Below are positions 831-48,788 of a DNA stretch of 64,000 bases, one piece after another. The stretch's first letter is position 1. Each line of letters opens with the position of its first letter. The stretch is from Planctomycetota bacterium (GTDB lineage Bacteria > Planctomycetota > Planctomycetia > JALXBF01). The position numbers were made by a program, and so were the translations under genes. The notes beneath the pieces were generated by a model. It was not told the DNA's origin and did not search any database. It saw only the letters and a program-made list of their open reading frames with translations. The stretch covers positions 6,936 through 70,935 of the forward strand of contig JALSID010000163.1 of the NCBI GenBank assembly GCA_026981825.1, in the 5' to 3' direction.

Positions 831-1649
831 CGCTGACCGTCCTTTCTGTCTGCTCTGGCTGGATTCTCGCTGCACGCCGCAGCGAAACACGGGGGCATCC
901 CGCGGCACAGGGAAGGCGGCTGCACGAGCTTTCCCGGCAACAGTGCAGGCGCGTCCACGCTGCTCACAAGCCCGGCCCATCGCAGATCGGCGCCGACGGA
1001 ACGATCCTCGGCAGGACAAAGACGAAGCTATCGTGGGCCAGGCGCACTGCTAGCCGCTTGCGCAGCACATCCAAGAACGCGGCTCGGACATGAGGGGGTT
1101 GGCAGGCGTAGCGCCGCAGGAAGAGCCATCGCGGCGATACCAGGAAACCGGCTCCCCATTCTGGGGAAACCACGCTGAACTGCTATCGCGCTGACCGTCC
1201 CCGGTCGATCACGGCTTGCGCACCCGGTTACGTCCCGAACCGTCTCCCGTTCCTAGACTCTGCTCGACCGTAAACGTGACGCGGCGATCCCCACGCCCCC
1301 TGGCAGCGGATGAGGAACGGCTACGCCACGATCCCCAGCCTAGCAGAATTTCCCCCGCTCGTCAACCGATTAGTCGAGGCTACCAATCAGCTTACAGGCG
1401 CTGCCCCCGTCGCACACGGAACGAACATGCACGTCCGGGTTGCCCAACCATCTCGTGCACGGGGAGCCGCGGCGCGCTGCTCGCGCAGACCGAACAGACG
1501 TGGTGCCGTCGCGACGGTGGGCGACAAAACCGGCTAACCTGTAAGCAGCCGCTATCGCTTGGGCCGTGCCCCGGTCGGAGGGTGGACGCACTCAGGGGTA
1601 GGAGGTGCGTGCGTCGTCGTGTCCCGCAGCGCAAGCAGCGAGGTCACCG

Positions 1650-3818
1650 ATGGGAACGTTGCTCTTTCAACTCGGCCGACTTGATGCCGCTATGCTCACG
1701 CGGCTTCGCTTCGTATACCTTCAGCAGGAAGCGGATGCGACGCTGAGCAGCCTGGCGCTTCAGCAGATTCTTTCCAGGACCGATGGCCCGGCCTGGTGCC
1801 ATTTGTTCTTCCCCGTTAGTCTGCCGTTCAACAGCTCGCTCGCAAAGCTCGTGCGTTCCCGCGTGACCGCTCGATCTGTGGGAGAGCGAGACGCAGCTAC
1901 TCGGGCAGAGCAGGAGTCCCACCTCGCTGCATGGGAGCCACACGCCGCGTTTCTCGACAAGATCGAGGAGGTCTGGGCCGATCCCGAGGCCTACCTGAAA
2001 GATCCGGCCCCCCTCTTTGAGGAACACCCGCATGTCAGAAGGATCCATGAGCTTAGTGCAGCCGCCTCATCGACCTCGTTCACCGTCTTACCATCGTTCG
2101 GCAGCTACAGCTACCGTGATGCAAGCGGTGCGGCGAAGAGCGCGGAGTTCCGAGCCCATCCGATGGATGTCCAGCTCGCCATGTTGGCAGCGATCCTCCA
2201 CGCGTACTTTCAGCTCAGGAAGGGCGGAGCGCAGGTGGACGTCGTCGCGATCGATACGTCGTGCGGGCTGAACGTGTATGTCGGTCTCTTGTGGGCCGCC
2301 TTCCGATTCGCAGCCGCTTGTATGCGGCTTTACCACGTGGGCGCCGACAGCCCCCGCTTTGCCGTATTCGCAACAGATCCCGTTGTGGCCGGGTCTGAGG
2401 GGCAAAGAACGCACGTGCACGAGCTGCCTCTGGAAGTGAAGGCGTTCTTCGATTACCCCCCTTCGGCGCGTCCACAAGTGGATGATTCAGGCCGCTTGAC
2501 GGTAGCCGCCGCTGCGCATGTGTTCGACAGCCAGGACCAAAGCGGCGCCCTCGAAAAGCAGCTCATCGATGGTGCCTACACCTGGGCCGCCGCAGCGTAC
2601 GGGTTGCCGCTCTACCTGGCATCCCGTTTTGACCCCGGCAAGCCGGCGCAGATAGACAACTGCCTGGAGGATGTGCTCTCGCACACCTTGGCTCGGATCT
2701 GCACCTCCAGTGGCCTGGTTGGCACGAAGGTTCGTTCCCTACAAGAGCACGCGGCTGCTATTCGCGATGTTGTGATCGCCCTATGCCTGCAACGAGGGCT
2801 CGTGGTCAGTTTGAACGAGGCCGTGGAAAACGTGTTGAATGGAGTGGACGTTACCGCAGAGTTTGTGAGCGCAAGGGGGCTTTACGACTTTTATCGGCGC
2901 ATGGCGGACATGTGCCAACTGCCCGTAGCGCGCACCTTCGTCCGCCGTGAACTAGAGAGGTTGGGCGGGACCAAGAAGAAGGGTTCATCGCCGACTGGGC
3001 GGCACCGAAACCGCAACTTTTTCGCCCACTGTGGCTTGCTTGACGAACTTTTCGAGAAGAGACGCGATCCTCAGGAACGACGATGGTTCCTCCGCTTGCC
3101 AAAAGACCGAGTTGGCCAGGTCCAATCCATAATCGCAGAGGTCCTCTTCACAGCAAAGCCAGAAAGAGAGAGCCCGAGAAAGGCCGGGCCAGGAGCGTCT
3201 TCGGGTACCGTCACCAAGGCGGCGAAGCGGACCAAGGCCCGCCCCTTCAAGAAAGTCAAGTGGCAAAACTTGCTGCAAAACCTCTGGGAGGAGATAGCGG
3301 AAGTAATCCAGACGGAGGGAGCGAGCATGGTGGAGTTGGGCTCCGTGCTGCAAAATGAGCGATTGCGAGCCCGAGCAAGCGAGCTGATTGAGTCGATGCG
3401 CACCCACGGCCTCTACGGCCCCTGCCTTTACTGGGCGGAGCGATTCGGCATTGCGCACGGGCTGAACGAGGAACAGGTGCAGGAAGCTCTGCGCGACATC
3501 CCCATCGGCTCGCCGCACTGGAAACCATCGCGCGATACCGTCAGGAAGATCGAGGATGCAAACTTCGCTCTCGCCTGCGGCGAAAGTGTCCCACACGACG
3601 CGCTAGCCGAACTCCAGGGGGTCGCTCATGCGCCGCGCCCGACGGGCGTTTGGATTCGTGTACCCGGACTGAGAGATTTCTTCGCACCCCAGCAGGAGCT
3701 TCCCGCATCTCCTGAGTCTCTAATTGGAAAGACCATGGCTTTCACCGTCCGCGCGCAACCGCACTCCCAGGCAAATCGGACGGTGTTGAATGCCGCCAGT
3801 GTCCGTGTGCTGGAATAG
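1650..3818 (+). CDS. hypothetical protein (722 aa), no recognisable domain
   Basis: Long GC3-rich ORF (track 1605..3818). ATG at 1650 preceded by GAGGT 7 nt upstream; the GTG at 1605 overlaps the AGGAGG box. No motif I can assign to a known family. Confidence 0.6.
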   Translation: MGTLLFQLGRLDAAMLTRLRFVYLQQEADATLSSLALQQILSRTDGPAWCHLFFPVSLPFNSSLAKLVRSRVTARSVGERDAATRAEQESHLAAWEPHAAFLDKIEEVWADPEAYLKDPAPLFEEHPHVRRIHELSAAASSTSFTVLPSFGSYSYRDASGAAKSAEFRAHPMDVQLAMLAAILHAYFQLRKGGAQVDVVAIDTSCGLNVYVGLLWAAFRFAAACMRLYHVGADSPRFAVFATDPVVAGSEGQRTHVHELPLEVKAFFDYPPSARPQVDDSGRLTVAAAAHVFDSQDQSGALEKQLIDGAYTWAAAAYGLPLYLASRFDPGKPAQIDNCLEDVLSHTLARICTSSGLVGTKVRSLQEHAAAIRDVVIALCLQRGLVVSLNEAVENVLNGVDVTAEFVSARGLYDFYRRMADMCQLPVARTFVRRELERLGGTKKKGSSPTGRHRNRNFFAHCGLLDELFEKRRDPQERRWFLRLPKDRVGQVQSIIAEVLFTAKPERESPRKAGPGASSGTVTKAAKRTKARPFKKVKWQNLLQNLWEEIAEVIQTEGASMVELGSVLQNERLRARASELIESMRTHGLYGPCLYWAERFGIAHGLNEEQVQEALRDIPIGSPHWKPSRDTVRKIEDANFALACGESVPHDALAELQGVAHAPRPTGVWIRVPGLRDFFAPQQELPASPESLIGKTMAFTVRAQPHSQANRTVLNAASVRVLE

Positions 3819-4210: not shown

Positions 4211-4510
4211 CTATTTGGAAACCGCCGACGAATCCGCCGTGGCTCCCTGTTGCTTTTCGATCTCCTCAAGCTCCTCGTCAGGAAGCTCGAACTTGGGAGC
4301 CTTCGGCTCTTCCCGAGTTGGGGTCTGCTCCACATACCGCGGCGTGGATTCGGCGTATGTCCCCTCGTTCCACTCATTCAATCCCTTCTTGAACTCGCTA
4401 ATCCCCTTCCCGATAGACCTGGCCACTTCCGGCAGCCGCTTCCCGAACAGAAGCACTGCCAGGAACATAATGATGAGCATCTCCCATGGACCAGGACTGA
4501 ACCCGAACAT
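4211..4510 (-). CDS. tatA: twin-arginine translocase subunit TatA/E
   Basis: MFGFSPGPWEMLIIMFLAVLLFGKRLPEVARSIGKGISEFKKG: TM helix, FG hinge and amphipathic helix diagnostic of TatA. GGAG SD 8 nt upstream of ATG. Confidence 0.85.
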   Translation of the reverse strand: MFGFSPGPWEMLIIMFLAVLLFGKRLPEVARSIGKGISEFKKGLNEWNEGTYAESTPRYVEQTPTREEPKAPKFELPDEELEEIEKQQGATADSSAVSK

Positions 4511-4548
4511 CGCTGTTCACTCCACAGGTGGATTGCGTGTGCGGAACT

Positions 4549-4779
4549 TTACCGGGTCGACGCGGAAGAGGTCGTTTTCTCTTCGATCTCCTTGCCCGCG
4601 TTTTCGATCTCCTCTTCGATTCCCTGCATTCCCTTCTTGAACTCGGTAACGCTTCGTCCCAGCGAACGCATCACGCCCGGCAAGCGGTTGCCGAAGAGAA
4701 GAAGGGCGATGAACGCAATGATCAGCAACTCGTAGTGGCCGGGCATCCCGAAGAACGCGAGCAGATTCGTAGCAAACAT
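4549..4779 (-). CDS. tatA: twin-arginine translocase subunit TatA/E (second tandem paralog)
   Basis: MFATNLLAFFGMPGHYELLIIAFIALLLFGNRLPGVMRSLGRSVTEFKKG; same TatA signature; 38 bp upstream of previous tatA. Confidence 0.8.
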   Translation of the reverse strand: MFATNLLAFFGMPGHYELLIIAFIALLLFGNRLPGVMRSLGRSVTEFKKGMQGIEEEIENAGKEIEEKTTSSASTR

Positions 4780-4819
4780 GGTGGATACTCCGCGGACTCG
4801 CCGTCAGGCCGTCGCTACC

Positions 4820-5047
4820 CTACGGCCGGCTATTTACCCTTATCCAATATACCAGAGCCAGCAGAACGACAATCGTAACTACCCCGATTCTCCGCCGATT
4901 GCGTTCGAACCAGGGCCTGTACTCCCGAAAGAACCACGTGTTCCGAAACAGGCGATACGCCAGAGGCCCGATGATGGGCAGCCGCTCACCGAACAACGCC
5001 AGGCCAAGCCCGATCACGATCAAGATTTCCCACTTGCCCGGCATCAT
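4820..5047 (-). CDS. TatA-like small membrane protein (atypical third tandem paralog)
   Basis: MMPGKWEILIVIGLGLALFGERLPIIGPL matches TatA TM + 'LFG-RLP' hinge. The amphipathic helix is replaced by a basic/aromatic segment and a second hydrophobic helix (IGVVTIVVLLALVYWI). Confidence 0.55.
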   Translation of the reverse strand: MMPGKWEILIVIGLGLALFGERLPIIGPLAYRLFRNTWFFREYRPWFERNRRRIGVVTIVVLLALVYWIRVNSRP

Positions 5048-5344: not shown

Positions 5345-7750
5345 TCAGCGGCGAGCCTCGGGCGCGTAGCGGTAGTAGACTTCGAGGCAGAGGGTGCTCA
5401 GGGCGGTCGTGTAGATTCGACCGCCGACCGTATCCCAAGCGACGTTGTACGCCGGGTCCCAGCTTCCGACGGCGTGCCCACTCCGCCGTTGTGTGCGCAG
5501 CAGGATGTCCTGCATCCGCTCGTTCCATCGCGCCCACACTTCCCCCCCGACCTGCGACAGCGACAGGGACGCATAGTACCAGTAGTAAACGTTCCGCACC
5601 CGATAGTCGGGCAAATTCTCCAGCAGGTACTGAACGGCCTCTTGGACGGCAGGATCCCTGACCGGTACGCCAAGGAACAGGCGGCACGCGAGAGCTTCAG
5701 CGGTCATGGGCGGGGTCGGGCCGTGCCGATCCATGGAGCGCTGCAGGTAAGAGGCAAGCCCGCCGGCTTTGCCCCAAGAAGCCAGTCGCAACCAGTTCTG
5801 CGCCCGCTCCCAGGTGGTGTCCGGAACCTGGATCCCCGCGATGCGTGCTCCACGCAATGCCAGGAGCTGCCAGCCGAAGACGCTGGTATCGCAAATCACC
5901 GCACGGGGCTGGTACCGCCAGCCGCCCGTCTGGGGGTTCTGAGCGTAGACGATGAACATGGCCGCTCGGTAAGCGGGCCCCCACAGTGCCTTGTCCCGGG
6001 TTAGGGCGTACGCTTCACACAGGGCCAATGTGGCGATAGCGTGGGCGTACATCCGCCCCGTTCCCCGCAGGTCCCCATCGGGTCGTTGCTGCTGGAGCAA
6101 CCAGCCGAGCCCTTTGCGGATGTTCGTCGCGTACGGCCCGCTCAGGTGCGTGTGGCCGGCACCGAGGAAGGCAAGTAGAGCCAGCCCGGTGATGGCCGTG
6201 TCTTCGTTGCGGAGCGTTCCCTCCCCCCCACAGGGGGCCACCTCCGGGCAAAGTCGGCCGAAGCCGTCGGCGTCCCACCGGCCGTCGGGACTCTGGTGCG
6301 CCGCCAACCAGGCCAGAGCCGCATCCACGGCTCGCTCGGTCTTCTCCGAGCCGCCACGTCGAAGGAGAATCTCGCTCCGCTCCGGACTTACCCGCAGGCG
6401 AAGCTCGGTAGGTACAGCAGCCAACTCGGCTCGATTGCGAACCGGCAGGGTTCCCGTATCGGCCCCGGTTGTGGTCCCGATGTGGGGCTGGGCGCCGATC
6501 AAGGCCCGGTCGGGCACGGCCAAGCCAGAGGTCGACGCGGTCGCTCGTCCGTGGTGGACTCTGGGCAGCGCGTCTGAGAAAGCTGTCTTCGGTGCGGCAA
6601 GGCCGGACGGAAGGGGCAGCCGACGCCGATCGGCTACACGGTGGGGAGGCTGTTCGGCGGGTTGCCGTGGCTGTACACCAGCCTCAGTCGGGGTATCCGC
6701 CTCCGCCGCCGGCGGAGGGATTCGACGTATTGCCCCCCGAGCAGTCTCTGCCACGTCGGAGTTTCCTTGCAACCGCGGCAGCGGCGCAGGGGCCAGGCTG
6801 GTTGCCGCCGACGCCATCGTCTGCTGGGCAATACCAGGCCGCCGCGTTTGGCGGGTCGGTTCACGCTCGATGGTCGCCGGTCGTTCGGGAAGTCTTGCTC
6901 GCACAAGCCCCCGGTCAAGCTGCGAGGCAGGCGGGGCAGATTCGGAGACGCGAGGCAGCTCTGGCTGCAGAGGGGTCTCCGAAGCAGCCGGCCCCCCTGC
7001 ATCCTGGGTGGCGTCTCGTCGCACAAGGGCCTCGCTCTCCTCGTGCGGCACCACGCGCAGCTCCGCCTCGGGAAGGGGCTCGCCCACGCCTTCGTCGAAC
7101 AACGCCGCCGAATCGCGCGTCAGACGCCTCCGCGGGGTTGGATCCTCCAGGGTCGGCGCGACGAGCTCACCGCTAAACTCCATCGAGCGTGGGACGACCC
7201 GCTCGGGCTCCAACACCGGTTCCTGCGGACTCAGTTCGCTCTCCGAGGCTCGCTGCAACGCCGGCTCTACGTCGCGTCGAGCGGTGGCCGGTTGTGGCTG
7301 CGGGGCCTCTGGACCGGGCACCGTGGGTAACGGTGCGTCGGGCGCCAGTTCCCGCTGGCCGCGCTCCAGAGCAGCGGGCATCGGGCCAGGAGAGGGTAGA
7401 TCCTGCACCGGATCATCCAGCTCAGGCGCTCCGAGCTCGCGTCCCGGCGAAAACCGGTCCCAGGGTTGATTCAGGGCGGCGAGTCCTCCAGCGCCTTCCG
7501 CCTCCCCTTCCGCCTCCGTTTCGATGCTCTCTAACCAGACCGTCTCCTCCGGTTCCTCGGCCGGTCGGATCCGCTCGGCCAGATCCAGCGTGCTGGCGAA
7601 CAGGAGGATGCAGGCGTGGAGCAAAAGGGAGAGCAAGAACGACTTGGCAAGCGGACGGTACTCCCCCCAGCGCGTCCAGAGCAACAGGCTCAGGCCGCTT
7701 ACTGTGGCGAGCAGCAGGATCCAGAGGATTGCGGCGCTCAGTCCGCCCAT
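5345..7750 (-). CDS. membrane-anchored Pro/Glu-rich protein with C-terminal prenyltransferase/squalene-oxidase (QW) repeat alpha/alpha-toroid domain; TonB/TolA-like topology
   Basis: N-terminal TM helix (LSAAILWILLLATVSGLSLLLW). About 450 aa low-complexity P/E/A-rich linker. C-terminal ~330 aa with repeated Q-x2-3-(D/T/S)G-x-W motifs (HQSPDGRWD, QQQRPDGDL, AQNPQTGGWRY, RTQRRSGHAVGSWD). Start ATG overlaps exbD stop (ATGA). Confidence 0.8.
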   Translation of the reverse strand: MGGLSAAILWILLLATVSGLSLLLWTRWGEYRPLAKSFLLSLLLHACILLFASTLDLAERIRPAEEPEETVWLESIETEAEGEAEGAGGLAALNQPWDRFSPGRELGAPELDDPVQDLPSPGPMPAALERGQRELAPDAPLPTVPGPEAPQPQPATARRDVEPALQRASESELSPQEPVLEPERVVPRSMEFSGELVAPTLEDPTPRRRLTRDSAALFDEGVGEPLPEAELRVVPHEESEALVRRDATQDAGGPAASETPLQPELPRVSESAPPASQLDRGLVRARLPERPATIEREPTRQTRRPGIAQQTMASAATSLAPAPLPRLQGNSDVAETARGAIRRIPPPAAEADTPTEAGVQPRQPAEQPPHRVADRRRLPLPSGLAAPKTAFSDALPRVHHGRATASTSGLAVPDRALIGAQPHIGTTTGADTGTLPVRNRAELAAVPTELRLRVSPERSEILLRRGGSEKTERAVDAALAWLAAHQSPDGRWDADGFGRLCPEVAPCGGEGTLRNEDTAITGLALLAFLGAGHTHLSGPYATNIRKGLGWLLQQQRPDGDLRGTGRMYAHAIATLALCEAYALTRDKALWGPAYRAAMFIVYAQNPQTGGWRYQPRAVICDTSVFGWQLLALRGARIAGIQVPDTTWERAQNWLRLASWGKAGGLASYLQRSMDRHGPTPPMTAEALACRLFLGVPVRDPAVQEAVQYLLENLPDYRVRNVYYWYYASLSLSQVGGEVWARWNERMQDILLRTQRRSGHAVGSWDPAYNVAWDTVGGRIYTTALSTLCLEVYYRYAPEARR

Positions 7751-8193
7751 CAGGGCTCCTCCTGCGACGCCGACTCGGACGTCCGCTTCCGCACACTCAC
7801 CGCCACATGGCGCACCCCCTGCTGGTTGCAGATACTGAGCACTTCTGCCACGTACTGGTAGGCAGCTCTCCCGTCCCCCCGGATAAGGACAGCTCGCTCC
7901 GGATCGTCCTCGAGCGCTTGTTTCAGTTGCTTGGCCAATTGGTCCAGTCCCACCTGGACCCCGTTGAGCCGCACAGCCCCATCCCGCGCCACCTCGATCA
8001 GAAGCTGGCGCGGGACGTGGACCATGGGCCGAGCCTCCGAGACGCGGGGGACTTCGAGGTCAAGCTTCTGTTCGTTCTCATACTCGTAGAATCGGGTGCC
8101 CACGAGAAAAAAGATGATGAGCAAGAACACCATGTCGATCAGCGGTGTCATGTTCAGAGCAGGGAGGTCTTCTTGCTGAGATCGCGGCAACAT
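7750..8193 (-). CDS. exbD: biopolymer transport protein ExbD/TolR
   Basis: NMTPLIDMVFLLIIFFLV... typical ExbD/TolR TM segment and periplasmic domain. 57 bp downstream of exbB. Confidence 0.85.
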   Translation of the reverse strand: MLPRSQQEDLPALNMTPLIDMVFLLIIFFLVGTRFYEYENEQKLDLEVPRVSEARPMVHVPRQLLIEVARDGAVRLNGVQVGLDQLAKQLKQALEDDPERAVLIRGDGRAAYQYVAEVLSICNQQGVRHVAVSVRKRTSESASQEEP

Positions 8194-8250
8194 CGTGCAC
8201 CTGCCCTATCTCGGTCGTTGCCTATCCGCTCCTGCAAACCCCCGCCGCCG

Positions 8251-9147
8251 TTAGGCCGACTGTCGCGTCACGGAGTGAACGGTCTTGGCTGTGCGTACCG
8301 TCGGTCGTCTGGGCTCGTGCACGGGGGCCGTGTGGCCGTTGTCCCGGTCGGGGCCGGTTCGGATCAGGCCGGCCGACGGCTCCGGCTCGGCAGCGACCAG
8401 GTCGATCACCTCCTGGGCAATCGATTCCATATCGGCCACCAAACGATCGACTCGCCCAAGGAAGTAGTAGTACGCGATCAGCGCCGGTATCGCCACGGTG
8501 AGCCCAAATGCCGTGGTATAAAGCGCCACATAGATACCTCCCGCCAGCGCCTCAGGCTTGCCCATAGCGTCACCGCTCGTTGCCACTTCACCGAAACAAC
8601 GGATCATGCCGATCACGGTGCCCAGCAATCCCAACAAGGGGGCAACGGTGGCGATCCCGTTAATCACACGTAGATTCCGACGAAGCTCGTAGACCTCGCG
8701 TTGCCCCCCCTCGGACACGGCCTGTTGCACCTCACCAATCGGCCGTCCCCACCGCCGGATTGCGTATTCGAGCACCCGCGCCAACGGACTGCCGTTGTTA
8801 CGGCACATGAGCAGAGCGGACTCACGGTCAAGGAGTCGATCGCGCAGATCGTTGAGCATACGTTGCGCGAAGGGCCCGGGGATCACGCGCGAGCGGCGCA
8901 GGGCCACGAGCCGCTCGACAATAACGGCCACCAGCACTACTGAGCACGCCAGGATGGGATACATGAGTATCCCGCCCTGCTGGAACAACTGGACGAGGAT
9001 GTTCGAGCCGATCCAGTCAGGCAACTGGGGCAACCGCACGGCTGAGTCCAAGCCGTCGGATTGGGCCACTGCCGGCCGAACCCCCCCGAGCCAGCTCACT
9101 GCCATTGCGATAATGCCCACAGACATTACTTGCCACAGACGTGACAT
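8251..9147 (-). CDS. exbB: MotA/TolQ/ExbB proton-channel family protein
   Basis: Three TM helices; ...LGLLGTVIGMI..F......G......L..GI..AL.TTAFGL.VAIPAL.AY.. matches the ExbB/TolQ core. Confidence 0.85.
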   Translation of the reverse strand: MSRLWQVMSVGIIAMAVSWLGGVRPAVAQSDGLDSAVRLPQLPDWIGSNILVQLFQQGGILMYPILACSVVLVAVIVERLVALRRSRVIPGPFAQRMLNDLRDRLLDRESALLMCRNNGSPLARVLEYAIRRWGRPIGEVQQAVSEGGQREVYELRRNLRVINGIATVAPLLGLLGTVIGMIRCFGEVATSGDAMGKPEALAGGIYVALYTTAFGLTVAIPALIAYYYFLGRVDRLVADMESIAQEVIDLVAAEPEPSAGLIRTGPDRDNGHTAPVHEPRRPTVRTAKTVHSVTRQSA

Positions 9148-9157
9148 CTCATCACCT

Positions 9158-12100
9158 CTACAAACGCGTGGATTTGCCGCTGCGGTCAGCGTTCTCTTTC
9201 GCTTCCAGCGTGCTCAGACGCTCCTTCGCTTCCCTGGCCACCTCGGCATCCGGGAACTCGCGCAGCACACGCCGGTACAGGTCGGCGGCCGCCTTGGGCT
9301 GGTTCAACTTCTCGTAGCACTTACCCGCCTCGACCAGGGCCGCAGCGCGCCAGCGCGGAATCTCGTACACCACATCCACCTTCAAGAACTCACGGATAGC
9401 TTCCTCATATGCCCCCCTCGCGAAATGAACCTCGCCGATCATGAATTGGGCACGCGCCGCGATCTCAGACGAGGGGGACTTCAAAGCCTGTTGAAACTCG
9501 TCGAGCGCCCGGTCCAACTGACCGACCCCCATGAGTGCTCGGCCCCGGTAGAAGTGCCCGAGAAAACGGAACTCGGGCGACGGCGCCGCTTCAACTAACC
9601 GGGACGCAGCCTGAACCGCGGCCTGCCAGTCCTGTTCGGCGATGAGCACCTGCACCTGGCGGAGCTGGACGTTCGGCCACCAGGCGGCCGTGGGGGGAGT
9701 CGAAGCCACCGCGTCTTGGACAACTTTGGCGAGCTCGCTTGATTTGCCCTGCTCGTACAACGCCTCTACAAGGATGTACAGTGCCTCGGATTGTTGTTCC
9801 TGTGCCGGCGAGGTATCGAGGAACTGCCGGGCGTAGCGTTCCGCGTCGGACCAGCGCTCCGCCGCAACAGATGCTCGGGCTAACAGAAGCAAGGCTCGCC
9901 CACGATGCGCCGCCGTGTTTGAGCGCTTGAGCACCCCGCTGAGCAGAGCGGTAGCTTCCTTTATGGAGGCGGCATCGCGCTGCTCGATGAGAAGCTGTGC
10001 TGCGTTTAACGCAGCCTCCGGGGCTTTTTCGCCCCCCCCGGCTGCACGGATCGCCAACCGGTACTCCTTTAAAGCTTCGTCACCCCGACCAGCCTTCCAA
10101 AGCACCCATGCGTATTCCTGCCGAATCGTCGCCTGGTCGAACGCCCCGACCGCTCGGGCTTGCTTGCCCGTGGAGTGGGCCTCCTCCCCTAACCGTTCCA
10201 GACAAGCTGCATAGGCAGCGGCCGCCTCCACGAACCTTTGGGCCTGCGTCAGAGTCCGCGCCAGCGCGAGCATCGCGTCGACCGCCAGGGGTGAATCCGG
10301 ATGCTCCTCGGTCACCCGACGAAACGCCGCGATCGCTTGCTCAAGCTGGCCGAGCTTCTTGGACGCGTATCCTTCCAGCAACAGCATCTCGGGCACGATC
10401 TCGCTCGATTTGTACTGCCCAAGGAATCGCGTCGCGTCCCGGAGAGCCTCTTCCGCTCGGTCGTTGTAGTACTTCGCCCAGGCGGCACCGGCAAGGGCGA
10501 AAGCAGCAGTCTCAGCAGGAACCGCCTCGCTCGCAGCCACCTCGTCGTAGAGCCGGGCGGCCACGTCATACGCTTCTATCCCGTAGAAGGCGTCGGCGCA
10601 CGCGAGTTTGGTCTGCACATAGAGCGTCGGGTTCGCCTTCTGCAACGTGTCGAGTTCCCGAAGCGCGTCGTCTGCCCGCCCCAGTTGCGCGTAGCAGATC
10701 GCCCGATACCCGCGAGCATACGCGCCCAGGTCGTGGTCAGTCCGCGCCTGGAGAAACACACTAAAGTTGCGCAGTGCCGTCTCGTAATCCTCTGTTCCGA
10801 ACGCACAGCGCCCCGCCAGGAAGTACGCCTCCGGTAAAAACGCCACGGTATCCGGCTCGTTCAGCAGCGACTCCAGTTCCTTGAGTGCTGCTCCCAGTTC
10901 ACGGCGGTCCGCTTTGAGGAGCGCGCTGTAGTACCGCGCCGTCGCCGCGACCCGTTTGTCGGCCGCCTTCAACGCATGGGGCAGCCATTGCTCGGCCTTG
11001 TCGGCTTCCCGCGCCGCCAGAGCTGCTCGAACAACAGCCAAAGCCACAGCCCCCTTGAGGTCCGAGTTCGGGTACAGCTCGAAAAAGTCGTTTGCCAGGG
11101 CAATACAGTCGTCCACATGGCCCAGATCGGAACGCAACTGAGCCGCGTGTACCATGGCATGCTCAGCCAGCTCATGCTCGGGCAGCTCACGCGGGATGCG
11201 CAGGTACGTCTCGATCGCCTTCTCGATTTCGCCCTGCTCGGCCTGTAACCGCGCCGCCTCGTTCCAGGCGCGAGCGGCGACATCGCCATCGGTGCGCACC
11301 GCCCGTTCCCCCACCGCCAGCAACTGCTCGATTGCCTCCGCGGCCTTCCCCTGAGCCGCCAGGGCTTTGCCCAGCCAGTAGCCCGCTTCAAGAGCAAGGG
11401 AGCTGTCTCCACCGAGGGATTGCACGAGCTGAAAATGAGTGGCCGCCTGCTGGTAGCCCTTCAACCGGTACAACGCAAGCCCGTTGTTGAAATGCGCCGT
11501 TTTCGCCAGAGGGCTGTCGGGAAACCGCTGCAGAAGGGTCTCAAACAATTGCCGTGCGTGCGCGTAACGGCCGCGATCGTACTCGATCGTCCCCGCCGCC
11601 AAAAGTGCATCGTCTGCCACCTCACTGTTGCCCTGACCCGCAGCCGTGTAGTACTGCAGGGCAAGCTCAATCTTGCCGCGGTTCTCTTCAATCTGAGCCA
11701 GAGCGTAGCGGTAATGGTCGGCCAGGGGAAGGCGTCCGTACAGCCGCAGAGCGGACTCTAACAGCTCGGCCGCCTCTTGCTCCTTACCGGCCCGTAACAA
11801 CGCCTCGCCGAGGTAGCGAAGCGCATAAGGACGCATCCGATGCTCAGGATGGTGGTCAAGGTACGCCCTCAGCAAGGGAATGGCGGTCTGCCAGCGTTGC
11901 GCAAGATAGGCGGCTTCGCCGGCGCGGAATCGAGCCCACGGAAAGTGCTGTTCTTGCGGGTAAGCTTCGATGTACCTCTGGTAGGCTTTCAGGGCCGCCT
12001 CGTACTGCTTCTGCTGCAGCAGCGACTCGGCCAGGAAGAACTGGGCCTCATGGGCTCTGGGGTGGTCCGGGAACTTTTGGAGGAATTCACGGTAGGTGTC

Positions 12101-12307
12101 GGCCGCAAAGCTGAACTGCCGACGCTGGAAAAAACGAACGGCTGCCTTGAGCAAGCGGGCCGCTTCGCGGTCTCGCTGCTGCTCTTGGTCGCGTGCAGCC
12201 GCGGACTTCGATTCCTGGCGTGGCGCGCTCCCGGCCAGGGCCGAACCGGCTCCGCCGACCGTCGTCGCGACGAGCAGCAGCAAGGCGGTTCTCACAATCG
12301 GCATCAT
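9158..12307 (-). CDS. large secreted tetratricopeptide-repeat protein (CpoB/YbgF-like TPR arrays)
   Basis: ATGATG at 12302-12307 with GGGAG SD. Signal peptide MMPIVRTALLLLVATTVGGAGSALA. More than 20 TPR-like helix pairs throughout (AxxxYxxAlxxY patterns). Ends 10 bp before exbB. Confidence 0.8.
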   Translation of the reverse strand: MMPIVRTALLLLVATTVGGAGSALAGSAPRQESKSAAARDQEQQRDREAARLLKAAVRFFQRRQFSFAADTYREFLQKFPDHPRAHEAQFFLAESLLQQKQYEAALKAYQRYIEAYPQEQHFPWARFRAGEAAYLAQRWQTAIPLLRAYLDHHPEHRMRPYALRYLGEALLRAGKEQEAAELLESALRLYGRLPLADHYRYALAQIEENRGKIELALQYYTAAGQGNSEVADDALLAAGTIEYDRGRYAHARQLFETLLQRFPDSPLAKTAHFNNGLALYRLKGYQQAATHFQLVQSLGGDSSLALEAGYWLGKALAAQGKAAEAIEQLLAVGERAVRTDGDVAARAWNEAARLQAEQGEIEKAIETYLRIPRELPEHELAEHAMVHAAQLRSDLGHVDDCIALANDFFELYPNSDLKGAVALAVVRAALAAREADKAEQWLPHALKAADKRVAATARYYSALLKADRRELGAALKELESLLNEPDTVAFLPEAYFLAGRCAFGTEDYETALRNFSVFLQARTDHDLGAYARGYRAICYAQLGRADDALRELDTLQKANPTLYVQTKLACADAFYGIEAYDVAARLYDEVAASEAVPAETAAFALAGAAWAKYYNDRAEEALRDATRFLGQYKSSEIVPEMLLLEGYASKKLGQLEQAIAAFRRVTEEHPDSPLAVDAMLALARTLTQAQRFVEAAAAYAACLERLGEEAHSTGKQARAVGAFDQATIRQEYAWVLWKAGRGDEALKEYRLAIRAAGGGEKAPEAALNAAQLLIEQRDAASIKEATALLSGVLKRSNTAAHRGRALLLLARASVAAERWSDAERYARQFLDTSPAQEQQSEALYILVEALYEQGKSSELAKVVQDAVASTPPTAAWWPNVQLRQVQVLIAEQDWQAAVQAASRLVEAAPSPEFRFLGHFYRGRALMGVGQLDRALDEFQQALKSPSSEIAARAQFMIGEVHFARGAYEEAIREFLKVDVVYEIPRWRAAALVEAGKCYEKLNQPKAAADLYRRVLREFPDAEVAREAKERLSTLEAKENADRSGKSTRL

Positions 12308-12664
12308 CTTCCACTCCCGAGATGCACTCTGGCGCAAGCCCGACGCCATCGGGCCCTGGCCGTACCCGGACCGTCTGCCTCTATCATCGGCTCGTTTCCG
12401 TTGCTCAGCCCATCTAATTGGATTATTGCCGACAACCATCAGGCGGCACAGGAGATGAAGCTCTCGTCTCGTCCCTTCATCCGGACGTGTGGTCCTACAA
12501 GTAGAAGCGCCAGCGGCGCCCGTTTCGAACCGTTGGTGAAGAGGTGTTCACGAGCACAGCCGTTTGCCTTCTGCGTCCCGTACTACCGCCGATGCGACTC
12601 GGAACGCAACGTCTGCGCCGTAGCATCCGGGCCGTACCACACCACTGCCGCCTACGCTTCGGAA

Positions 12665-12688
12665 AGGCCAGGGGGAAATCCCCCTGGC
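12665..12688 (-). terminator. GC-rich hairpin terminator downstream of mdh
   Basis: GGCCAGGGGG-AAAT-CCCCCTGGCC: perfect 10-bp stem with 4-nt loop, 30 bp after mdh stop. On the minus strand it is followed by TTTCC. A perfect 10-bp stem is unlikely by chance in 64 kb. Confidence 0.5.
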
Positions 12689-12717
12689 CGTCGATCGATC
12701 GAACCGGGTCAGACCGA

Positions 12718-13716
<999 letters not shown>

Positions 13717-14213: not shown

Positions 14214-17162
14214 ATGAGTCGCGGCTCGTATCTTGCTTGGCTAGTCGGTGCTGCCCTCTTGTTGGCGCCCATCCACTCCCCCCCGACGCGGGCCGAAGAG
14301 GACCGAGAAGCGTTTATCGAAGCTCTGCGCAATGCGGGCTACTACGACGTCGTAGTGGCGTATATCGAGCAGCAGTTGCGTGAGCGGTCCCTCGGCGCCG
14401 AGGAAAGAGAAGCTCTAACCTTCGAACTCGCTCAGGCCCTGCTTGACGCGGCCGCGCACGAACCTGACCTGCAGAAGCGCGCCGCTTTGCTGGATCGAAG
14501 CCAACGGGCGCTCCGCGAGTACTTGAACCGCTATCAGGAGGGGGTCTACGCGGCAAAAGCAGAATTTGAGCTCGCAAGGCTTCAGTTCGAGCGCGGTCGA
14601 CTCCTGGCGGCTCAGGCCGAGAAAGCGGACTCGCCGGCGCAGGTCCGGGCACGGTGGCACGAGGCACGGGAGGCGTTCCGCGAAGCACAAGAGCGGTTTC
14701 GACAGGCAGCGGCATTGTTCCAGAAACAGCTCCGCCAGTACCCACTGCACGTCGACCCGAATCGCACGGTTGAGATTGCAGGACGGCGGTTACCGGGGCG
14801 CGTAGCCGCTCGCCTGAGAAGCGAGGCCGAGGTGAACCGGATCCTCGCTCAGTTCCACGACGCGATGGTTGACTTCGAGTACGCGCACACCTTTCCGGAG
14901 GGTACTGCCGAGCGGCGTGCGAAGCTTGAAGAGGCCGAGAAGAAATTCGAGCGGATCTACCAGCTCTATCGCACGGTTTTGGCAGGTTTGCATGCGCGCA
15001 TGTGGATGGCGCGATGTCTGGACGAGTTGGGCGAGACGAGAAAGGCGCTGGGGCTGTACGAGGAACTGCTTCGCCACGACCCGGCGGACCAGCCCAACAG
15101 CGCGGCGCGAGCGGCGCTAACCGAACTGCAACGGCGTGTTCGTGCGTTCTGGATCGCCGCTCAGAACCGTCTGGGCAATTATCAGCTCGCCCTGGACGCT
15201 GCCCGAGAATGGCTGCGTCGCAACCGACGGCAGCGCTACTCGGAAACGGGTCAAACGATCCTTTGGGAACTCGCCCGGGCAGCACGCGGCCTGTACTCAA
15301 AGCTGCCGGACAATTCCCCCCAACGGCGTGCGTTACTCCGCGAGGCGATCGACGCTTGGGCCGAACTGGCCCGTCAGGATTCCCCCTACCGGCAGTTGGC
15401 CGTTGCGGAACTGCAACGTTGGGCCGGTGTAGAGCAGGTTTCGGGCCGGCGAGAACTGACCTTTGCGGCTGCAGTTTCGCTGGCCACACAGGCGTTAGAG
15501 GCGGAGAACTGGGCCGAGGCAGAACGGCTTTACGGCATTGCACTCACTCTACGGCACGAAGCGGACAACAGCTACCAGGTCAACGACGCTCGGCTACGGC
15601 GTGCCTACGCCCTCTATCGTCTGGGCAAGCAGCTCGAAGCGGCCGTGATCGCCGAGCACATAGTCTGGCGCTACCCAGGCTCCGGGCTGGCCAAAAGTGC
15701 CGCGTACCTGGCCCTCGTTTCGCTCTGGTCGGCGTACCGAGAGGCCCTGCAACAGAGGAACCCCGTGGTGAGCTCGGGCCTTCTCCCGCATATCGAACAG
15801 CTCGCCACCACGGTGGTCGATCGTTGGCCCACATCGCGAGAAGCGGACTTCGCGCGGTCGTTGCTCGGTCACATCGCGTGGAGGAACAAGGACTGGCGCG
15901 GCGCTGCGCGGTGGTACGAAGCCGTCAGCCCCAGCGCCGAGGGTTACGTAAAAAGCATGCTTCGGGCCGCTGAGGCGTGGTGGCAGGTGTACATCTCACA
16001 GGCAAGGGGGACAGCCGAAAGCGCCGAGATCCTTTCGCGGTGCCAGAAGGCTGCCGAGGCAGCTCGAACCGCCCATGGTGATCAGCTCAATAAGGACGCG
16101 AGCCAGCGCCCCCCGTCGCTTGTGCAGGCGGATCTTCTCCTGGCGCGGGTCATGCTGGAACAAGGGAACGTCGAAGAGGTGCGGCGGCTGATTGAGCCCT
16201 ATTTTGTCGTTGCTTTCGTCCGGGACGACCTGGGAGCACTGCGGGAACAGCTTCTAACCGTCCTCCTCCAGGCGCATCTGATGGCCGGGGACCTGGAGGC
16301 GGCGCAGCGTGTACTGGCCATGATGGAACGTTCCGACACAACTGGCCTGCGCCAACTTATGGCCCAGCTCGCCGACCGCCTCGCGGACGAAGCCGAGCGG
16401 CTCAAGCAAGCGGGCCAAGCGGACCTGGCCGAGGAGCGTGCCCAGGCGTTCGCACGTCTTGTCTACCAGCTTCTCGAAGACAGGGCCTTGCCTGCCGAGG
16501 TTCTCTTCGGCTTCGTCCCCAGCCTCAGTCAACTTGGTCAGCATGAAGCGGCAATTCGCGCGGCCCAGCAGCTTGTGCAGACAACCCGCTCAGACCGCAG
16601 GAAGAACCGTGCGGCCCGTCTGTTGCTTGCCCAGGCCCTCCGTGCGGCGGGCCGGTATCGGGACGCGGCAGGATTGTTACTCAGTGCCGACCGTCGTTCG
16701 GGGCTGCTTGCGGAAAACCCGCGTGCTGTGGACGCGATCATGGAGTATGGCCGGGTGCTTACCTGGTGGGGCCTGGAGGAAGCAAGCCGGCTCAAAGAAG
16801 CCTCTCGCCACTGGAACCGCTACACTCGCCTGCTATCGCTTGCTCGGCGGCGGCCGGACGAGTATTACCAAGCGTGGTGTTATCTGATCTTGACCGAGCT
16901 TGCCCGAGGCCAAAGAGGGGGGACGGGAAGCCGACAGCGTGCGCGCGCCCTGGCCCGCTACGGGTTGCAGACATCGCCCGCCGCCGATCTGGATCGCCGG
17001 ATCCAGGGCCCTGGCTGGGCAGACCTGCTGCGCCTGGCCGAAAAACTCGGCCTGCGCCGTCCACGTGAGCTGGACACGGTACGCGACGTGCTTGAATGGC
17101 TTCATGGACAGGCCGGTGGGCGACCGGGCGACTCGCCAGCGCCGACGGAAAGCCTACGGTGA
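14214..17162 (+). CDS. large secreted TPR/alpha-helical repeat protein
   Basis: Signal peptide MSRGSYLAWLVGAALLLAPIHS; 982 aa of TPR-like repeats. GGAGAA SD. Confidence 0.75.
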   Translation: MSRGSYLAWLVGAALLLAPIHSPPTRAEEDREAFIEALRNAGYYDVVVAYIEQQLRERSLGAEEREALTFELAQALLDAAAHEPDLQKRAALLDRSQRALREYLNRYQEGVYAAKAEFELARLQFERGRLLAAQAEKADSPAQVRARWHEAREAFREAQERFRQAAALFQKQLRQYPLHVDPNRTVEIAGRRLPGRVAARLRSEAEVNRILAQFHDAMVDFEYAHTFPEGTAERRAKLEEAEKKFERIYQLYRTVLAGLHARMWMARCLDELGETRKALGLYEELLRHDPADQPNSAARAALTELQRRVRAFWIAAQNRLGNYQLALDAAREWLRRNRRQRYSETGQTILWELARAARGLYSKLPDNSPQRRALLREAIDAWAELARQDSPYRQLAVAELQRWAGVEQVSGRRELTFAAAVSLATQALEAENWAEAERLYGIALTLRHEADNSYQVNDARLRRAYALYRLGKQLEAAVIAEHIVWRYPGSGLAKSAAYLALVSLWSAYREALQQRNPVVSSGLLPHIEQLATTVVDRWPTSREADFARSLLGHIAWRNKDWRGAARWYEAVSPSAEGYVKSMLRAAEAWWQVYISQARGTAESAEILSRCQKAAEAARTAHGDQLNKDASQRPPSLVQADLLLARVMLEQGNVEEVRRLIEPYFVVAFVRDDLGALREQLLTVLLQAHLMAGDLEAAQRVLAMMERSDTTGLRQLMAQLADRLADEAERLKQAGQADLAEERAQAFARLVYQLLEDRALPAEVLFGFVPSLSQLGQHEAAIRAAQQLVQTTRSDRRKNRAARLLLAQALRAAGRYRDAAGLLLSADRRSGLLAENPRAVDAIMEYGRVLTWWGLEEASRLKEASRHWNRYTRLLSLARRRPDEYYQAWCYLILTELARGQRGGTGSRQRARALARYGLQTSPAADLDRRIQGPGWADLLRLAEKLGLRRPRELDTVRDVLEWLHGQAGGRPGDSPAPTESLR

Positions 17163-17200: not shown

Positions 17201-17475
17201 GGAAGCGCACGCCTGTCGTTTCCGAAAGAAGCCCGATTCCTTGCCGGGATGAAGGCTTAGGACGAACCGCTACGGGCGGCGTGGTCGATTCGCAAATCGC
17301 TGCTCGGGCCTTTCGCTTTCGATGCAGATCGCGGTACAATCGCTGCGCGTGATACCTTGCCTTGCATGCAACCGTGTGTTGTGCCCGCTACATGCCCGAT
17401 TCGCGGGACCAGATCGGGCGGTGCGGGGAAACGGATTGTGGCCCATGTGTCTCAGGACGCGCTGGGGGATTCATC

Positions 17476-26080: not shown

Positions 26081-27545
26081 CCGTGTACTCCGATACGGTT
26101 GTGTAGTTGGGCGCTTCCTGGGTAATCGCCACATCGTGGGGATGGCTCTCCACAACCCCCGCTGCCGTGACTTCCACAAACCGGCTCCGGCTGCGGAGCT
26201 CCTCGATATTGCGTGTACCCGCGTAGCCCATCCCTGCACGCAGGCCACCGACGAGCTGGTACACGATCTCGGCCAACGGCCCCTTGTACGGGACCCGCCC
26301 CTCTACCCCCTCGGGAACCAGCTTCTCCGGTCTCGTCCCGCTCTGGCGGTAGCGATCGCTCGAGCCGCTAACCATTGCGCCCAACGATCCCATGCCTCGG
26401 TACAGTTTGAAGCGGCGTCCCTTGTAGATGATCAGTCTTCCAGGGCTCTCGGCCGCCCCCGCGAACAAACCGCCCAGCATGACCGCGTGGGCCCCGGCAG
26501 CGATTGCCTTCGTGATATCGCCGGAGTACCGAATACCTCCGTCCGCGATGATGCGGACGCCGGTGCCCTGTACGGCCCGTGCCGCTTCGGCAATTGCCGT
26601 CAACTGCGGCACCCCAACGCCAGAGACCACCCGAGTCGTGCAAATCGAGCCCGGGCCGATGCCTACCTTAACTGCATCGGCACCGGCCTCTACCAGAGCT
26701 TTAGCGCCGTCGTAGGTGGCTACGTTGCCCGCTATGACCTCGCAGCCATACCGGTTCTTGATCTCTCGCACCGTCTCCAGCACATTGCGGGAATGGCCGT
26801 GCGCCGAGTCCACCACGATGACATCAACATCCGCCTCCAACAGTTTCTCAACTCGCTCGAAGTCGTAAACCCCAACTGCAGCCCCCACCCGCAGCCGGCC
26901 GCGATCGTCCTTGCTGGCATGGGGAAAGCGGTGCATCTTGTCGATGTCCTTGATCGTGATCAATCCCCTCAGCTTGTACTCTTCGTCCACCAGCAACAGC
27001 TTCTCGACCTTATTACGCATCAGGATCCGTTCTGCCTCTTCCAGGGTCGTCGTCTCCGGCGCAGTGACCAGGTTGTCCTTGGTCATCACCTGCTCGATGG
27101 GTGTATCGTCGGCTTCGTGGAACCGAAGGTCGCGCCGGGTGAGGATGCCGCGGAGCCGGTTGTCCTCATCCACAATCGGGACACCGCTGATGTTCTGCCG
27201 CTCCATCACCTCTCGGGCTTCCCGCACCGTCTGCCAGGGATGCAAAGTCACCGGATCCACGATAATGCCGCTCTCCGAACGTTTGACCTTGTACACCTCC
27301 TGCGCCTGCTCCTCGATCGACATGTTCTTGTGGATCACGCCCAGGCCACCCTCCTGAGCTAAAGCAATGGCAAGATCCGCTTCGGTGACGGTATCCATGG
27401 GGGCAGATAGCAGCGGAATGCGCAGACGGATGGTGGGTGTGATCCACGTGCTCGTGTCCGCATCACGCGGCAGGAAATCGCTGTAGCCCGGCAACAAGAA
27501 CACGTCGTCAAAGGTCACGCCGCGCAGCACGATTCGCTCACGCAT
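26064..27545 (-). CDS. guaB: inosine-5'-monophosphate dehydrogenase
   Basis: [20 protein letters not shown]-terminus; tandem CBS domains; catalytic loop [11 protein letters not shown]. Confidence 0.95.
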
Positions 27546-48779: not shown

Positions 48780-48788
48780 TCAGGTGCC

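Follow-up and report, generated by a model that had tools for sequence, protein, structure and literature searches.

The 64,000-nucleotide stretch of Planctomycetota DNA analysed here (the window) carries on its minus strand four genes that we consider, with a probability of about 0.6, to form one envelope module, in which the last product, an 801-aa protein, would be a force transducer driven by the proton motive force (PMF) and headed by a toroid. An ORF check confirmed the predicted extents of all four: a secreted giant TPR protein of 1049 aa (9158–12307), an ExbB/TolQ-family proton-channel subunit of 298 aa (8251–9147), an ExbD/TolR-family subunit of 147 aa (7750–8193), and the 801-aa protein, the predicted transducer (5345–7750). 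The tight packing claimed for these co-directional genes was verified in the window sequence: the exbB ATG follows the TPR stop after 10 nt, and exbD follows exbB after 57 nt. The junction of exbD with the 801-aa gene, however, is not the ATGA overlap originally described; it reads cTGATGg, and stop and start share 1 nt (TGATG). A Shine-Dalgarno-like AGGAGG lies 8 nt 5' of the ATG of the 801-aa gene. Between mdh (12718–13659) and the module there is, as predicted, a perfect 10-bp GC-rich hairpin (12666–12689, minus strand; GGCCAGGGGG-AUUU-CCCCCUGGCC), located about 30 nt past the mdh stop and separated from the TPR start by about 355 nt of non-coding DNA. For the 66-nt hairpin region the folding energy is -36.9 kcal/mol (z -3.55 relative to shuffled sequences). 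The U tract after the hairpin, UUUCC, is weak, and a consensus terminator scan left the hairpin unflagged because the T run is short.

The two motor proteins belong to the ExbB and ExbD families at the Pfam level, as was claimed for them (PF01618, E 3e-29; PF02472, E 4e-28), and in NCBIfam they are nearer to TolQ and TolR than to ExbB and ExbD. The best model for the ExbB-like protein is TolQ, at 84.7 bits against an equivalog cut-off of 221, with the ExbB models at 43–56 bits; the ExbD-like protein scores 60.3 bits with TolR (cut-off 127.3) versus 30–33 bits with the ExbD models, all below cut-off. In the TM helix motif of the ExbD-like protein, TPLIDMVFLLIIFF, the aspartate D20 corresponds in position to the essential residue D25 of ExbD and D23 of TolR. 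The ExbB-like protein has a signal-like extension at its N-terminus and reads GIYVAL where E. coli has GIAEAL, and therefore lacks a glutamate aligned to E176 of E. coli ExbB. PADLOC models, which include anti-phage defence motors such as Zorya, gave no match to any of the four proteins.

The TPR protein is counted from the ATG at 12307, in a frame that is open up to 12439, and the identical 1049-aa gene call was found in an independent assembly of the same sequence (L001). Its N-terminus, MMPIVRTALLLLVATTVGGAGSALA followed by GS, is signal peptide-like and has no lipobox cysteine. It matches multiple Pfam TPR families (TPR_16, E 4e-51) and, in NCBIfam, the tol_pal_ybgF model at 256.7 bits, which exceeds the cut-off of 90.1 but is summed over seven TPR stretches; with the full-length CpoB model PRK10803 it scores 90.7 against 383. 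Further NCBIfam matches, to BamD, PorW/SprE, GltC and CpoB, are partial. Judged by sequence, the C-terminal TPRs of the protein are probably CpoB/YbgF-like.

How might the 801-aa protein engage such a motor? The TonB/TolA topology originally assigned to it is supported, although hydropathy gives two hydrophobic segments in place of the single N-terminal anchor that was claimed: TM1 (aa 6–24) and TM2 (aa 37–55) form a membrane hairpin (7586–7750) around the basic loop TRWGEYRPLAK. By the positive-inside rule this loop would be cytoplasmic and the remainder of the protein periplasmic. The second segment carries S41-LLL-H45, the Ser-x-x-x-His (SHLS) signature of the TonB family. Of 78 orthologous ORFs, 68 were found by script to have S/A-x-x-x-H inside a hydrophobic segment, and four of the ten that the script missed show the motif by eye (L011, L012, L015 and L016); the sequence around it is poorly conserved among orthologues. 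A candidate strand, T70-VWLESIE-77 (7520–7543), lies 25 to 26 residues past His45, and an alternating hydrophobic pattern at a fixed offset (median His+26) is present in 33 of the 68 orthologues, versus 15% of background linker windows. The strands of E. coli TonB and TolA lie at His+25 and His+28. The concept of this 'motor box' strand in TonB and TolA is that of PMC12204202. The Pro-rich linker was correctly predicted in character and overestimated in length, being about 380 aa (aa 59–440; 6431–7576) rather than 450; it is of low complexity, rich in Pro, Ala, Glu and Arg (14.9, 14.1, 11.0 and 10.7%, respectively), variable in length between orthologues and impossible to align. Presumably it is extended and spans the periplasm.

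The C-terminal 368 aa (aa 434–801; 5345–6451) were modeled confidently by structure prediction as an all-helical (alpha/alpha)6 toroid with four QW-like motifs. Fold search matches agree, as does the phmmer alignment to squalene-hopene cyclase (SHC), in which toroid and QW repeats are also seen, and the alpha/alpha toroid of the original prediction therefore stands. It was also correct that the domain is neither TonB-C nor TolA-III: TonB_C (PF03544) and TolA are unmatched in Pfam and NCBIfam at E<=0.01, and vWA is unmatched in Pfam. At the same threshold the one Pfam match is PF13243 (SQHop_cyclase_C), whose 25.8 bits fall marginally short of the gathering score (26.1). The toroid domain alone matched 5213 protein clusters at E<=1e-30. 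Its DxDD acid is absent; D374-V-D376-D377 of SHC aligns by phmmer to V-I-C-D in the window, and homologues mostly have G-D. The toroid is proposed to be related to class II terpene cyclases but catalytically dead. The N-terminal ends of its inner helices hold a conserved pocket of Asp, Glu and Arg with many Trp and Tyr residues, which could equally mean an enzyme.

The gene neighborhood proved to be conserved in PVC genomes. In Planctomycetota, Verrucomicrobiota, Kiritimatiellia and Sumerlaeia, 62 loci had an upstream flank long enough to be tested; the order TPR-ExbB-(ExbD)-toroid is found in 52–56 of them, with ExbB upstream on the same strand in 56, TPR in 53 and ExbD in 42. Isosphaeraceae-type loci keep TPR-ExbB-toroid and have no ExbD gene at the locus, and there either ExbD is encoded elsewhere or the coupling is different. 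Among the neighborhoods of 80 loci there is no further conserved gene family beyond the module, tolB or pal adjoins it in none, and neither a Pal-like or outer-membrane partner gene nor a Glt, Gld or Por gene is linked to it; no TonB_C protein is encoded within the module. Several genomes have two or more paralogous modules (L007 and L082 in one MAG, and a tandem pair in L038), a situation closer to that of multiple TonB systems than to that of one housekeeping Tol-Pal. Many orthologues, including most of those outside the lineage of the window, carry a fused N-terminal TolB/PorE-like PD40 propeller with an extra TM helix as anchor, the best matches of the PD40 parts being PorE, OmpA-like integrity proteins and TolB propellers, and the 801-aa protein is a short form without PD40. 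In the arrangement TM0-PD40-TM1-TM2-linker-toroid both globular domains would be periplasmic, a topology that is self-consistent in the long and short architectures. In verrucomicrobial loci there is, in addition, a PD40-toroid paralogue that lacks S-x-x-x-H.

We found no description in the literature of an ExbB/ExbD-type motor paired with a toroid-headed transducer. Nearest to it among published systems are the force transducers with vWA heads from PVC bacteria, where TPR-tolQ-tolR genes accompany an SHLS transducer (Williams-Jones et al. 2025, Mol Biol Evol, PMC12204202); the words toroid, squalene and prenyl are all absent from the main text of that paper. Since a PVC system that pairs a TolQR-type motor with a transducer whose head is not that of TonB, encoded downstream of a TPR gene, was published in 2025, the idea is not categorically new, and of the candidate new energy-transduction system of the original prediction it is the toroid head for which we found no description, the concept having been published for vWA heads. 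The two systems share the TPR–tolQ-like–tolR-like synteny, the SHLS TM helix and the same phyla, but the head of the module is an (alpha/alpha)6 toroid rather than a vWA/Rossmann fold, there is one tolR-like gene instead of a heterologous pair, and a TM hairpin, in many cases with a PD40 propeller ahead of it, serves as anchor. With TonB systems the module has in common ExbB/ExbD-family motor genes, the Ser-x-x-x-His TM signature, several paralogous systems per genome, a Pro-rich periplasm-spanning region and a candidate strand about 25 residues past the His. Unlike TonB, it lacks the alpha-beta TonB_C domain of about 90 aa, which leaves no obvious route to TonB-box beta-augmentation, and has no linked TonB-dependent transporter; its protein has two TM segments, where TonB and TolA are single-pass, and a far longer linker.

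The 801-aa protein might instead be a periplasmic enzyme or binding protein anchored in the inner membrane and acting, for instance, on a glycan or an isoprenoid lipid; it would share the operon with ExbBD but transduce no force, and ExbBD would energise another, canonical TonB. The (alpha/alpha)6 barrels are mostly enzymes (GH76, epimerases, cyclases), the conserved polar and aromatic cluster of the toroid occupies the usual location of an active site, and the verrucomicrobial PD40-toroid paralogue has no S-x-x-x-H. We nevertheless think this unlikely: the Ser-x-x-x-His and fixed-offset strand are kept across phyla while the N-terminal remainder drifts, which is hard to reconcile with a passive anchor, synteny with ExbB is strict (56 of 62), the long Pro-rich spacer is typical of transducers, and the module encodes no TonB_C protein.

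Less probable again is an ordinary but divergent Tol-Pal operon (cpoB-tolQ-tolR-tolA) with a fast-evolving TolA as its last gene. In its favor, the top NCBIfam models are TolQ, TolR and YbgF/CpoB, an SHLS-like TM helix and a long linker are found in the last protein, and a TolB-like PD40 propeller is fused in orthologues; a role in outer-membrane integrity is plausible. However, the TolQ and TolR scores are far under the equivalog cut-offs, the C-terminal domain is a 360-aa all-helical toroid where the TolAIII/TonB-C fold has roughly 100 aa, and the module lacks TolAIII and, at all 80 loci, an adjacent free TolB or Pal gene, its propeller in long orthologues being fused and membrane-anchored. 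The TPR protein, of about 1000 aa compared with about 260 for CpoB, is encoded first, unlike in the canonical order, and genomes carry multiple paralogous modules. The PorE/CHU_0125-type TPR-propeller-OmpA proteins of Bacteroidota, proposed as a compact Tol-Pal analogue (PMC12204202), are the best match for the PD40 of the long orthologues and likewise combine TPR, propeller and an envelope-anchoring module. They are, however, outer-membrane lipoproteins with a peptidoglycan-binding OmpA_C domain and no motor-docking helix, whereas the propeller of the module is on an inner-membrane protein whose terminal module is a toroid.

The resemblance of the PD40 parts to PorE, together with the partial matches of the TPR protein to PorW/SprE and GltC, could also point to a motor for surface motility or secretion, comparable to Myxococcus Agl-Glt or the GldLM/PorLM of the T9SS, and the authors of the vWA study also speculated on gliding (PMC12204202). 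This seems very unlikely, as no Glt, Gld or Por gene is linked in any locus, the PorW and GltC matches are far below cut-off and explained by generic TPR similarity, and the module occurs in lineages not known for gliding. Finally, the (alpha/alpha)6 toroid with QW motifs is a feature of class II terpene cyclases, SHC and the single-domain cyclases (PDB 8paj; MstE, 6sbb) being the closest. The automatic name 'prenyltransferase/squalene oxidase repeat-containing protein' suggests a prenyltransferase or a class II terpene cyclase, squalene-hopene or other, for hopanoid or sterol synthesis, but this can hardly be right, given 34.6 bits with TIGR01507 (cut-off 431.1), identities of 16–18%, one toroid against the two-domain cyclase, a DxDD general acid replaced by Cys in the window and by Gly in most homologues, a predicted periplasmic site at the tip of a 380-aa tether, and a motor operon in which the partners are envelope proteins.

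In the force-transducer reading that we prefer, ExbB and ExbD would assemble in the inner membrane into a proton-driven 5:2 motor of the TolQR/ExbBD type, for which the 801-aa protein would be the force transducer. TM2, with its Ser-x-x-x-His, would dock outside the ExbB pentamer like TonB and TolA, the strand 26 residues past the His would serve as the motor box, and the linker of about 380 aa would bridge the periplasm. The motor would pull on a ligand or partner that the toroid grips at the outer membrane or the peptidoglycan, and the giant secreted TPR protein may act as a CpoB-like periplasmic scaffold or adaptor. Because PD40 is fused in most orthologues outside the window's lineage, the ancestral protein may have combined TolB-like and TolA-like parts, and the propeller would have been lost in the short form of the window. 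By analogy, the role would most likely be envelope maintenance or outer-membrane tethering, as a Tol-Pal analogue where canonical Tol-Pal is reduced, with TonB-like energised uptake as a second option. Tol-Pal is reported to be largely reduced in Planctomycetes (PMC8871954).

A bolder and rather doubtful extension is that the PVC superphylum has replaced Tol-Pal with this module of its own, in which TolB/PorE-like propeller, docking helix with linker, and toroid are united in a single inner-membrane polypeptide, and a toroid derived from terpene cyclases has been repurposed as a grip on an envelope ligand, for instance a glycan or an isoprenoid/hopanoid lipid of the outer membrane or peptidoglycan. 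If that were true, the PMF would power constriction, lipid homeostasis or the tethering of the outer membrane in bacteria without FtsZ-type division partners and without canonical TolA/TolB/Pal.

The module comprises four consecutive ORFs on the minus strand (5345-12439). The first, from an ATG at 12307, encodes a TPR protein of 1049 aa with a signal-peptide-like N-terminus (MMPIVRTALLLLVATTVGGAGSALA), and its length is the same in an independent gene call from a second assembly of identical sequence. It matches Pfam TPR_16 (E 4e-51) and many further TPR families; the NCBIfam model tol_pal_ybgF reaches 256.7 bits, spread over seven stretches, and BamD, PorW and CpoB are matched partially. The second gene encodes a 298 aa MotA/TolQ/ExbB protein (PF01618, E 3e-29) and the third a 147 aa ExbD/TolR protein (PF02472, E 4e-28). 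For both motor proteins the NCBIfam TolQ/TolR models outscore the ExbB/ExbD models, all of them far under equivalog cut-offs. The TM helix of the ExbD-like protein (TPLIDMVFLLIIFF) retains the Asp on which ExbD, TolR and MotB depend. The fourth gene (5345-7750, minus strand) encodes a toroid-headed protein of 801 aa, whose sole Pfam match, PF13243, is sub-threshold, and which is matched by neither TonB_C nor TolA in Pfam. The window's own four proteins are nameless in the sequence collection. The four-gene layout of the original prediction, with its TPR, ExbB and ExbD families now assigned by Pfam, is confirmed, apart from minor corrections: the 10 nt and 57 nt gaps are as described, the start/stop overlap read as ATGA is a 1 nt TGATG overlap preceded by AGGAGG, and the perfect 10-bp hairpin 3′ of the mdh stop is present, with a UUUCC tail. 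A consensus promoter and terminator scan of the module region gave nothing useful.

The last 368 residues of the 801 aa protein were modelled as twelve barrel helices (mean pLDDT 92.5, pTM 0.93, 27-sequence alignment), Foldseek agrees with the toroid model, and the QW-type repeats align with squalene-hopene cyclase in phmmer, so that the head domain is the QW-repeat toroid that had been proposed from the sequence. In the phmmer alignment, V-I-C-D-T-S of the window protein sits opposite D374-V-D376-D377-T-A of the cyclase, and most homologues have G-D-T-S at the DxDD position; the domain has therefore lost the class II cyclase general acid. In a comparison of 109 sequences, conservation is highest in two groups of residues, QW-type structural positions and positions at, or immediately ahead of, the N-termini of the inner helices (Y135, E146, W178-R179-Y180, D188, S190, W194, T250, Y289, Y292, Y293, G344-R345 and T349). 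By analogy with other (alpha/alpha)6 proteins, the N-termini of these helices would be the ligand site, and the toroid is likely to have a conserved pocket. Among the most conserved stretches is also the extreme C-terminus of the toroid, L-E-V-Y-Y-R-Y-x-P-L-Y, in which the E, Y, Y and R are 96-99% conserved; the window protein stops early, at YRYAPEARR (5345-5380, minus strand). This C-terminus could be a partner-binding tail.

At its N-terminus the 801 aa protein has two hydrophobic segments (residues 6-24 and 37-55), separated by a basic loop, TRWGEYRPLAK, and followed by an acidic stretch. By the positive-inside rule, the loop of this hairpin is predicted to be cytoplasmic and everything beyond residue 55 periplasmic. 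Residues 59-440 are of low complexity, rich in P (14.9%), A (14.1%), E (11.0%) and R (10.7%). The second hydrophobic segment contains S41-L-L-L-H45, and Ser-x-x-x-His in a single TM helix is the motor-engaging signature of TonB (S16/H20) and TolA (S18/H22) (PMC12204202). A scripted scan of ORFs of at least 560 aa found S/A-x-x-x-H within a hydrophobic segment in 68 of 78; of the ten that were missed, four show the motif by eye (LSIAAH and similar; loci L011, L012, L015 and L016), three more are 5′-truncated, and that of L049 has a different architecture. In the window protein an alternating hydrophobic stretch, TVWLESIE (residues 70-77), begins 25 residues past the His. Of the 68 orthologues, 33 match a strict beta-like pattern whose offset hardly varies (median His+26), compared with 15% of linker control windows. 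The corresponding strands of E. coli TonB and TolA begin at His+25 and His+28, respectively.

A word-indexed search returned 27 relatives. When 1.84 billion cluster representatives (clustered at 50% identity) were searched exhaustively by phmmer with the toroid domain, 5213 matched at E<=1e-30 and a total of 14212 at E<=1e-3. The domain is nearly always C-terminal, in proteins of 600-2000 aa, and homologues that have a name are called 'hypothetical protein' or 'prenyltransferase/squalene oxidase repeat-containing protein'. Scanning one genome per GTDB species with trimmed domain alignments as query confirmed at least 557 loci, the best 80 of which fall in Isosphaeraceae, Pirellulales, Planctomycetaceae, Gemmatales, Phycisphaerae, Akkermansiaceae (Roseibacillus and UBA5689), Opitutia, Puniceicoccaceae, Kiritimatiellia and Sumerlaeia. 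The expectation that the neighbourhood would be conserved was borne out decisively: in tblastn searches with the window proteins, covering the 62 loci in which the toroid ORF has an upstream flank of 4.5 kb or more, ExbB lies upstream on the same strand in 56, the TPR protein in 53, both together in 52 and ExbD in 42. Three distant homologues have the same gene order in precomputed gene calls. When 913 ORFs taken from 83 loci were clustered all-versus-all, only the four module families proved to be conserved, with no outer-membrane protein, Pal or TBDT; the clusters found in nine loci or fewer (DUF1501, aminotransferase, PrkA/DUF444, sulfatase and BamB-like) are all lineage-specific.

The transducer gene itself comes in two forms. 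The short form, as in the window, is TM1-TM2(SxxxH)-linker-toroid, and the long form (1050-1670 aa), found in Phycisphaerae, many Planctomycetaceae and every verrucomicrobial locus, has an extra N-terminal TM helix (TM0) and a PD40 beta-propeller ahead of the same hairpin. The best NCBIfam matches of the propeller are PorE, the CHU_0125 OmpA-like integrity protein and TolB; a phmmer search of the PD40 module against PDB sequences gave no match. The predicted topology of the long form (in-out, propeller, out-in, in-out) puts both propeller and toroid in the periplasm, and loss of TM0 and the propeller would explain why the short form has kept a seemingly superfluous first TM helix. In verrucomicrobial and Kiritimatiellia loci two tandem PD40-toroid genes follow exbD (L056, 3483-5891 and 5901-9056; L086, 3523-5892 and 5742-9017). 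The first encodes TM-PD40-toroid-PD40-like stretch-C-terminal TM, without an SxxxH helix, and the second is of the transducer type, an arrangement suggestive of partnerships between toroids, or between propeller and toroid. Some genomes have more than one copy of the module: in one Planctomycetota MAG, two complete TPR-ExbB-ExbD-(PD40-hairpin-toroid) modules lie head to tail (L038, 33-9020 and 9299-17002, the second transducer gene extending past the locus end) and the MAG DAIOWH01 has two separate loci (L007 and L082). Isosphaeraceae-type loci, those of cultured Isosphaeraceae included, keep TPR-ExbB-toroid, and exbD is absent from the locus. In the complete genome of Singulisphaera sp. Ch08 (L021, 5867-9197) the distance between exbB and the toroid gene is only 97 nt, and exbD is likewise absent from L008, L010, L013, L015, L019, L020, L022, L026, L028, L031, L041 and L080. 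TM1 of the Isosphaeraceae-type proteins has a conserved LRADxGxW, with an Asp that the window protein does not have. In Isosphaeraceae, either exbD is at another genomic site or coupling works differently.

What would such a set of genes do? The simplest reading that uses all the parts is a TonB/TolA-like force-transduction system, to which we give a probability of about 0.6. Proton flow through an ExbB5-ExbD2-type motor would be converted into motion, the toroid protein would dock on the motor through its SxxxH helix, the extended linker would transmit the pull to the toroid, and the toroid would grip something near the outer membrane or peptidoglycan, with the TPR protein as scaffold or regulator. 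Protein families, fold, motifs, gene order and breadth of distribution are observed directly; docking, topology, pulling and target are inferred. That the protein works like TonB or TolA is argued from its N-terminal features and from synteny, and on that footing the proposal stands. The main rival is that the 801 aa protein is a tethered periplasmic enzyme that merely shares the operon; this is weakened because the N-terminal features relevant to motor docking are exactly those conserved across phyla. A squalene-hopene cyclase or prenyltransferase enzyme is rejected on its tiny scores, the lost DxDD acid, the single domain and the predicted periplasmic topology. An anti-phage defence motor is rejected, since none of the four proteins has a match in a PADLOC search.

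For the force-transduction system, a role in envelope integrity or tethering is favoured by analogy, because the parts list is Tol-Pal-like (TolQ-like, TolR-like, CpoB-like and a TolB/PorE-like propeller) and because Tol-Pal is reported in Planctomycetes only in reduced form (PMC8871954). A TonB-like role in cargo-specific uptake stays alive because of the several paralogous modules per genome.

The nearest precedent is the family of vWA-headed transducers of PVC bacteria (Williams-Jones et al. 2025, PMC12204202). The present module has the same chassis, but its head is a toroid, it has a single tolR-like gene, and its transducer has a TM hairpin to which, in many cases, a propeller is fused. 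When membership was tested, the module fell outside TonB, TolA and the vWA family on its head domain, and outside the terpene cyclases on DxDD and score. The words toroid, squalene and prenyl are absent from the main text of PMC12204202, and full-text literature searches returned no paper tying a squalene-cyclase- or prenyltransferase-like domain to ExbB/ExbD/TolQR in PVC bacteria, in keeping with the original prediction, which knew of no pairing of a proton motor with a toroid. The module is real and widespread and, as a variant of a known machine type, apparently undescribed. The Akkermansia mucin utilisation locus MUL1 may likewise include TPR and motor genes. According to a later paper MUL1 is Sus-like and its synteny is missing from aquatic Akkermansiaceae; since the present module occurs in Roseibacillus and UBA5689, the two are probably different loci.

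Several neighbours in the window deserve mention. Directly downstream (4211-5047, minus strand) are a 75 aa ORF and two tatA/E paralogues (76 and 99 aa; PF02416); in the close relative L002 the tatA pair lies beside the module in the opposite orientation, which marks the association as local and tatA as no part of the module. Upstream of mdh and divergent from it, close to the module, is a secreted-looking helical protein of 982 aa, rich in Ala, Leu, Arg and Glu (14214-17162, plus strand), which has no Pfam match at E<=1e-4 and looks TPR- or solenoid-like by eye. The dnaA gene (17362-18885, plus strand; Bac_DnaA, E 1e-50) is about 5 kb from the module, and the window may therefore be near the replication origin; in the 20 kb of the window profiled, cumulative GC skew has minima near 13-14 kb and at about 19-20 kb. 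A PSCyt1-PSCyt2-PSD1 (DUF1549/DUF1553) protein followed by a DUF1501 protein (45621-50237, plus strand) is a pair typical of Planctomycetota, also found downstream of the module in L086 (Kiritimatiellia). Three large putative ORFs, at 1605-3818 (plus strand, 737 aa), 24338-26248 (minus strand, 636 aa) and 42410-44359 (minus strand, 649 aa), have no Pfam match at E<=1e-4.

To our knowledge, ExbBD/TolQR-type 5:2 motors are the sole known route for energy from the inner membrane to the outer envelope of diderms, and before 2025 every motor output known to us ended in a TonB-C/TolAIII-type head. The module, whose head is a dead terpene-cyclase toroid, would add a second class of non-canonical head and spans Planctomycetota, Verrucomicrobiota, Kiritimatiellia and Sumerlaeia. 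The envelope biology of the host phyla is unusual, with FtsZ-less division in Planctomycetes and uptake of macromolecules into an enlarged periplasm. The module is a candidate for one of the rare instances in which an enzyme fold has become the working end of a force transducer and, of relevance to research on Ton/Tol motors and the PVC envelope, a concrete and genetically testable candidate for energising outer-envelope processes in these bacteria.
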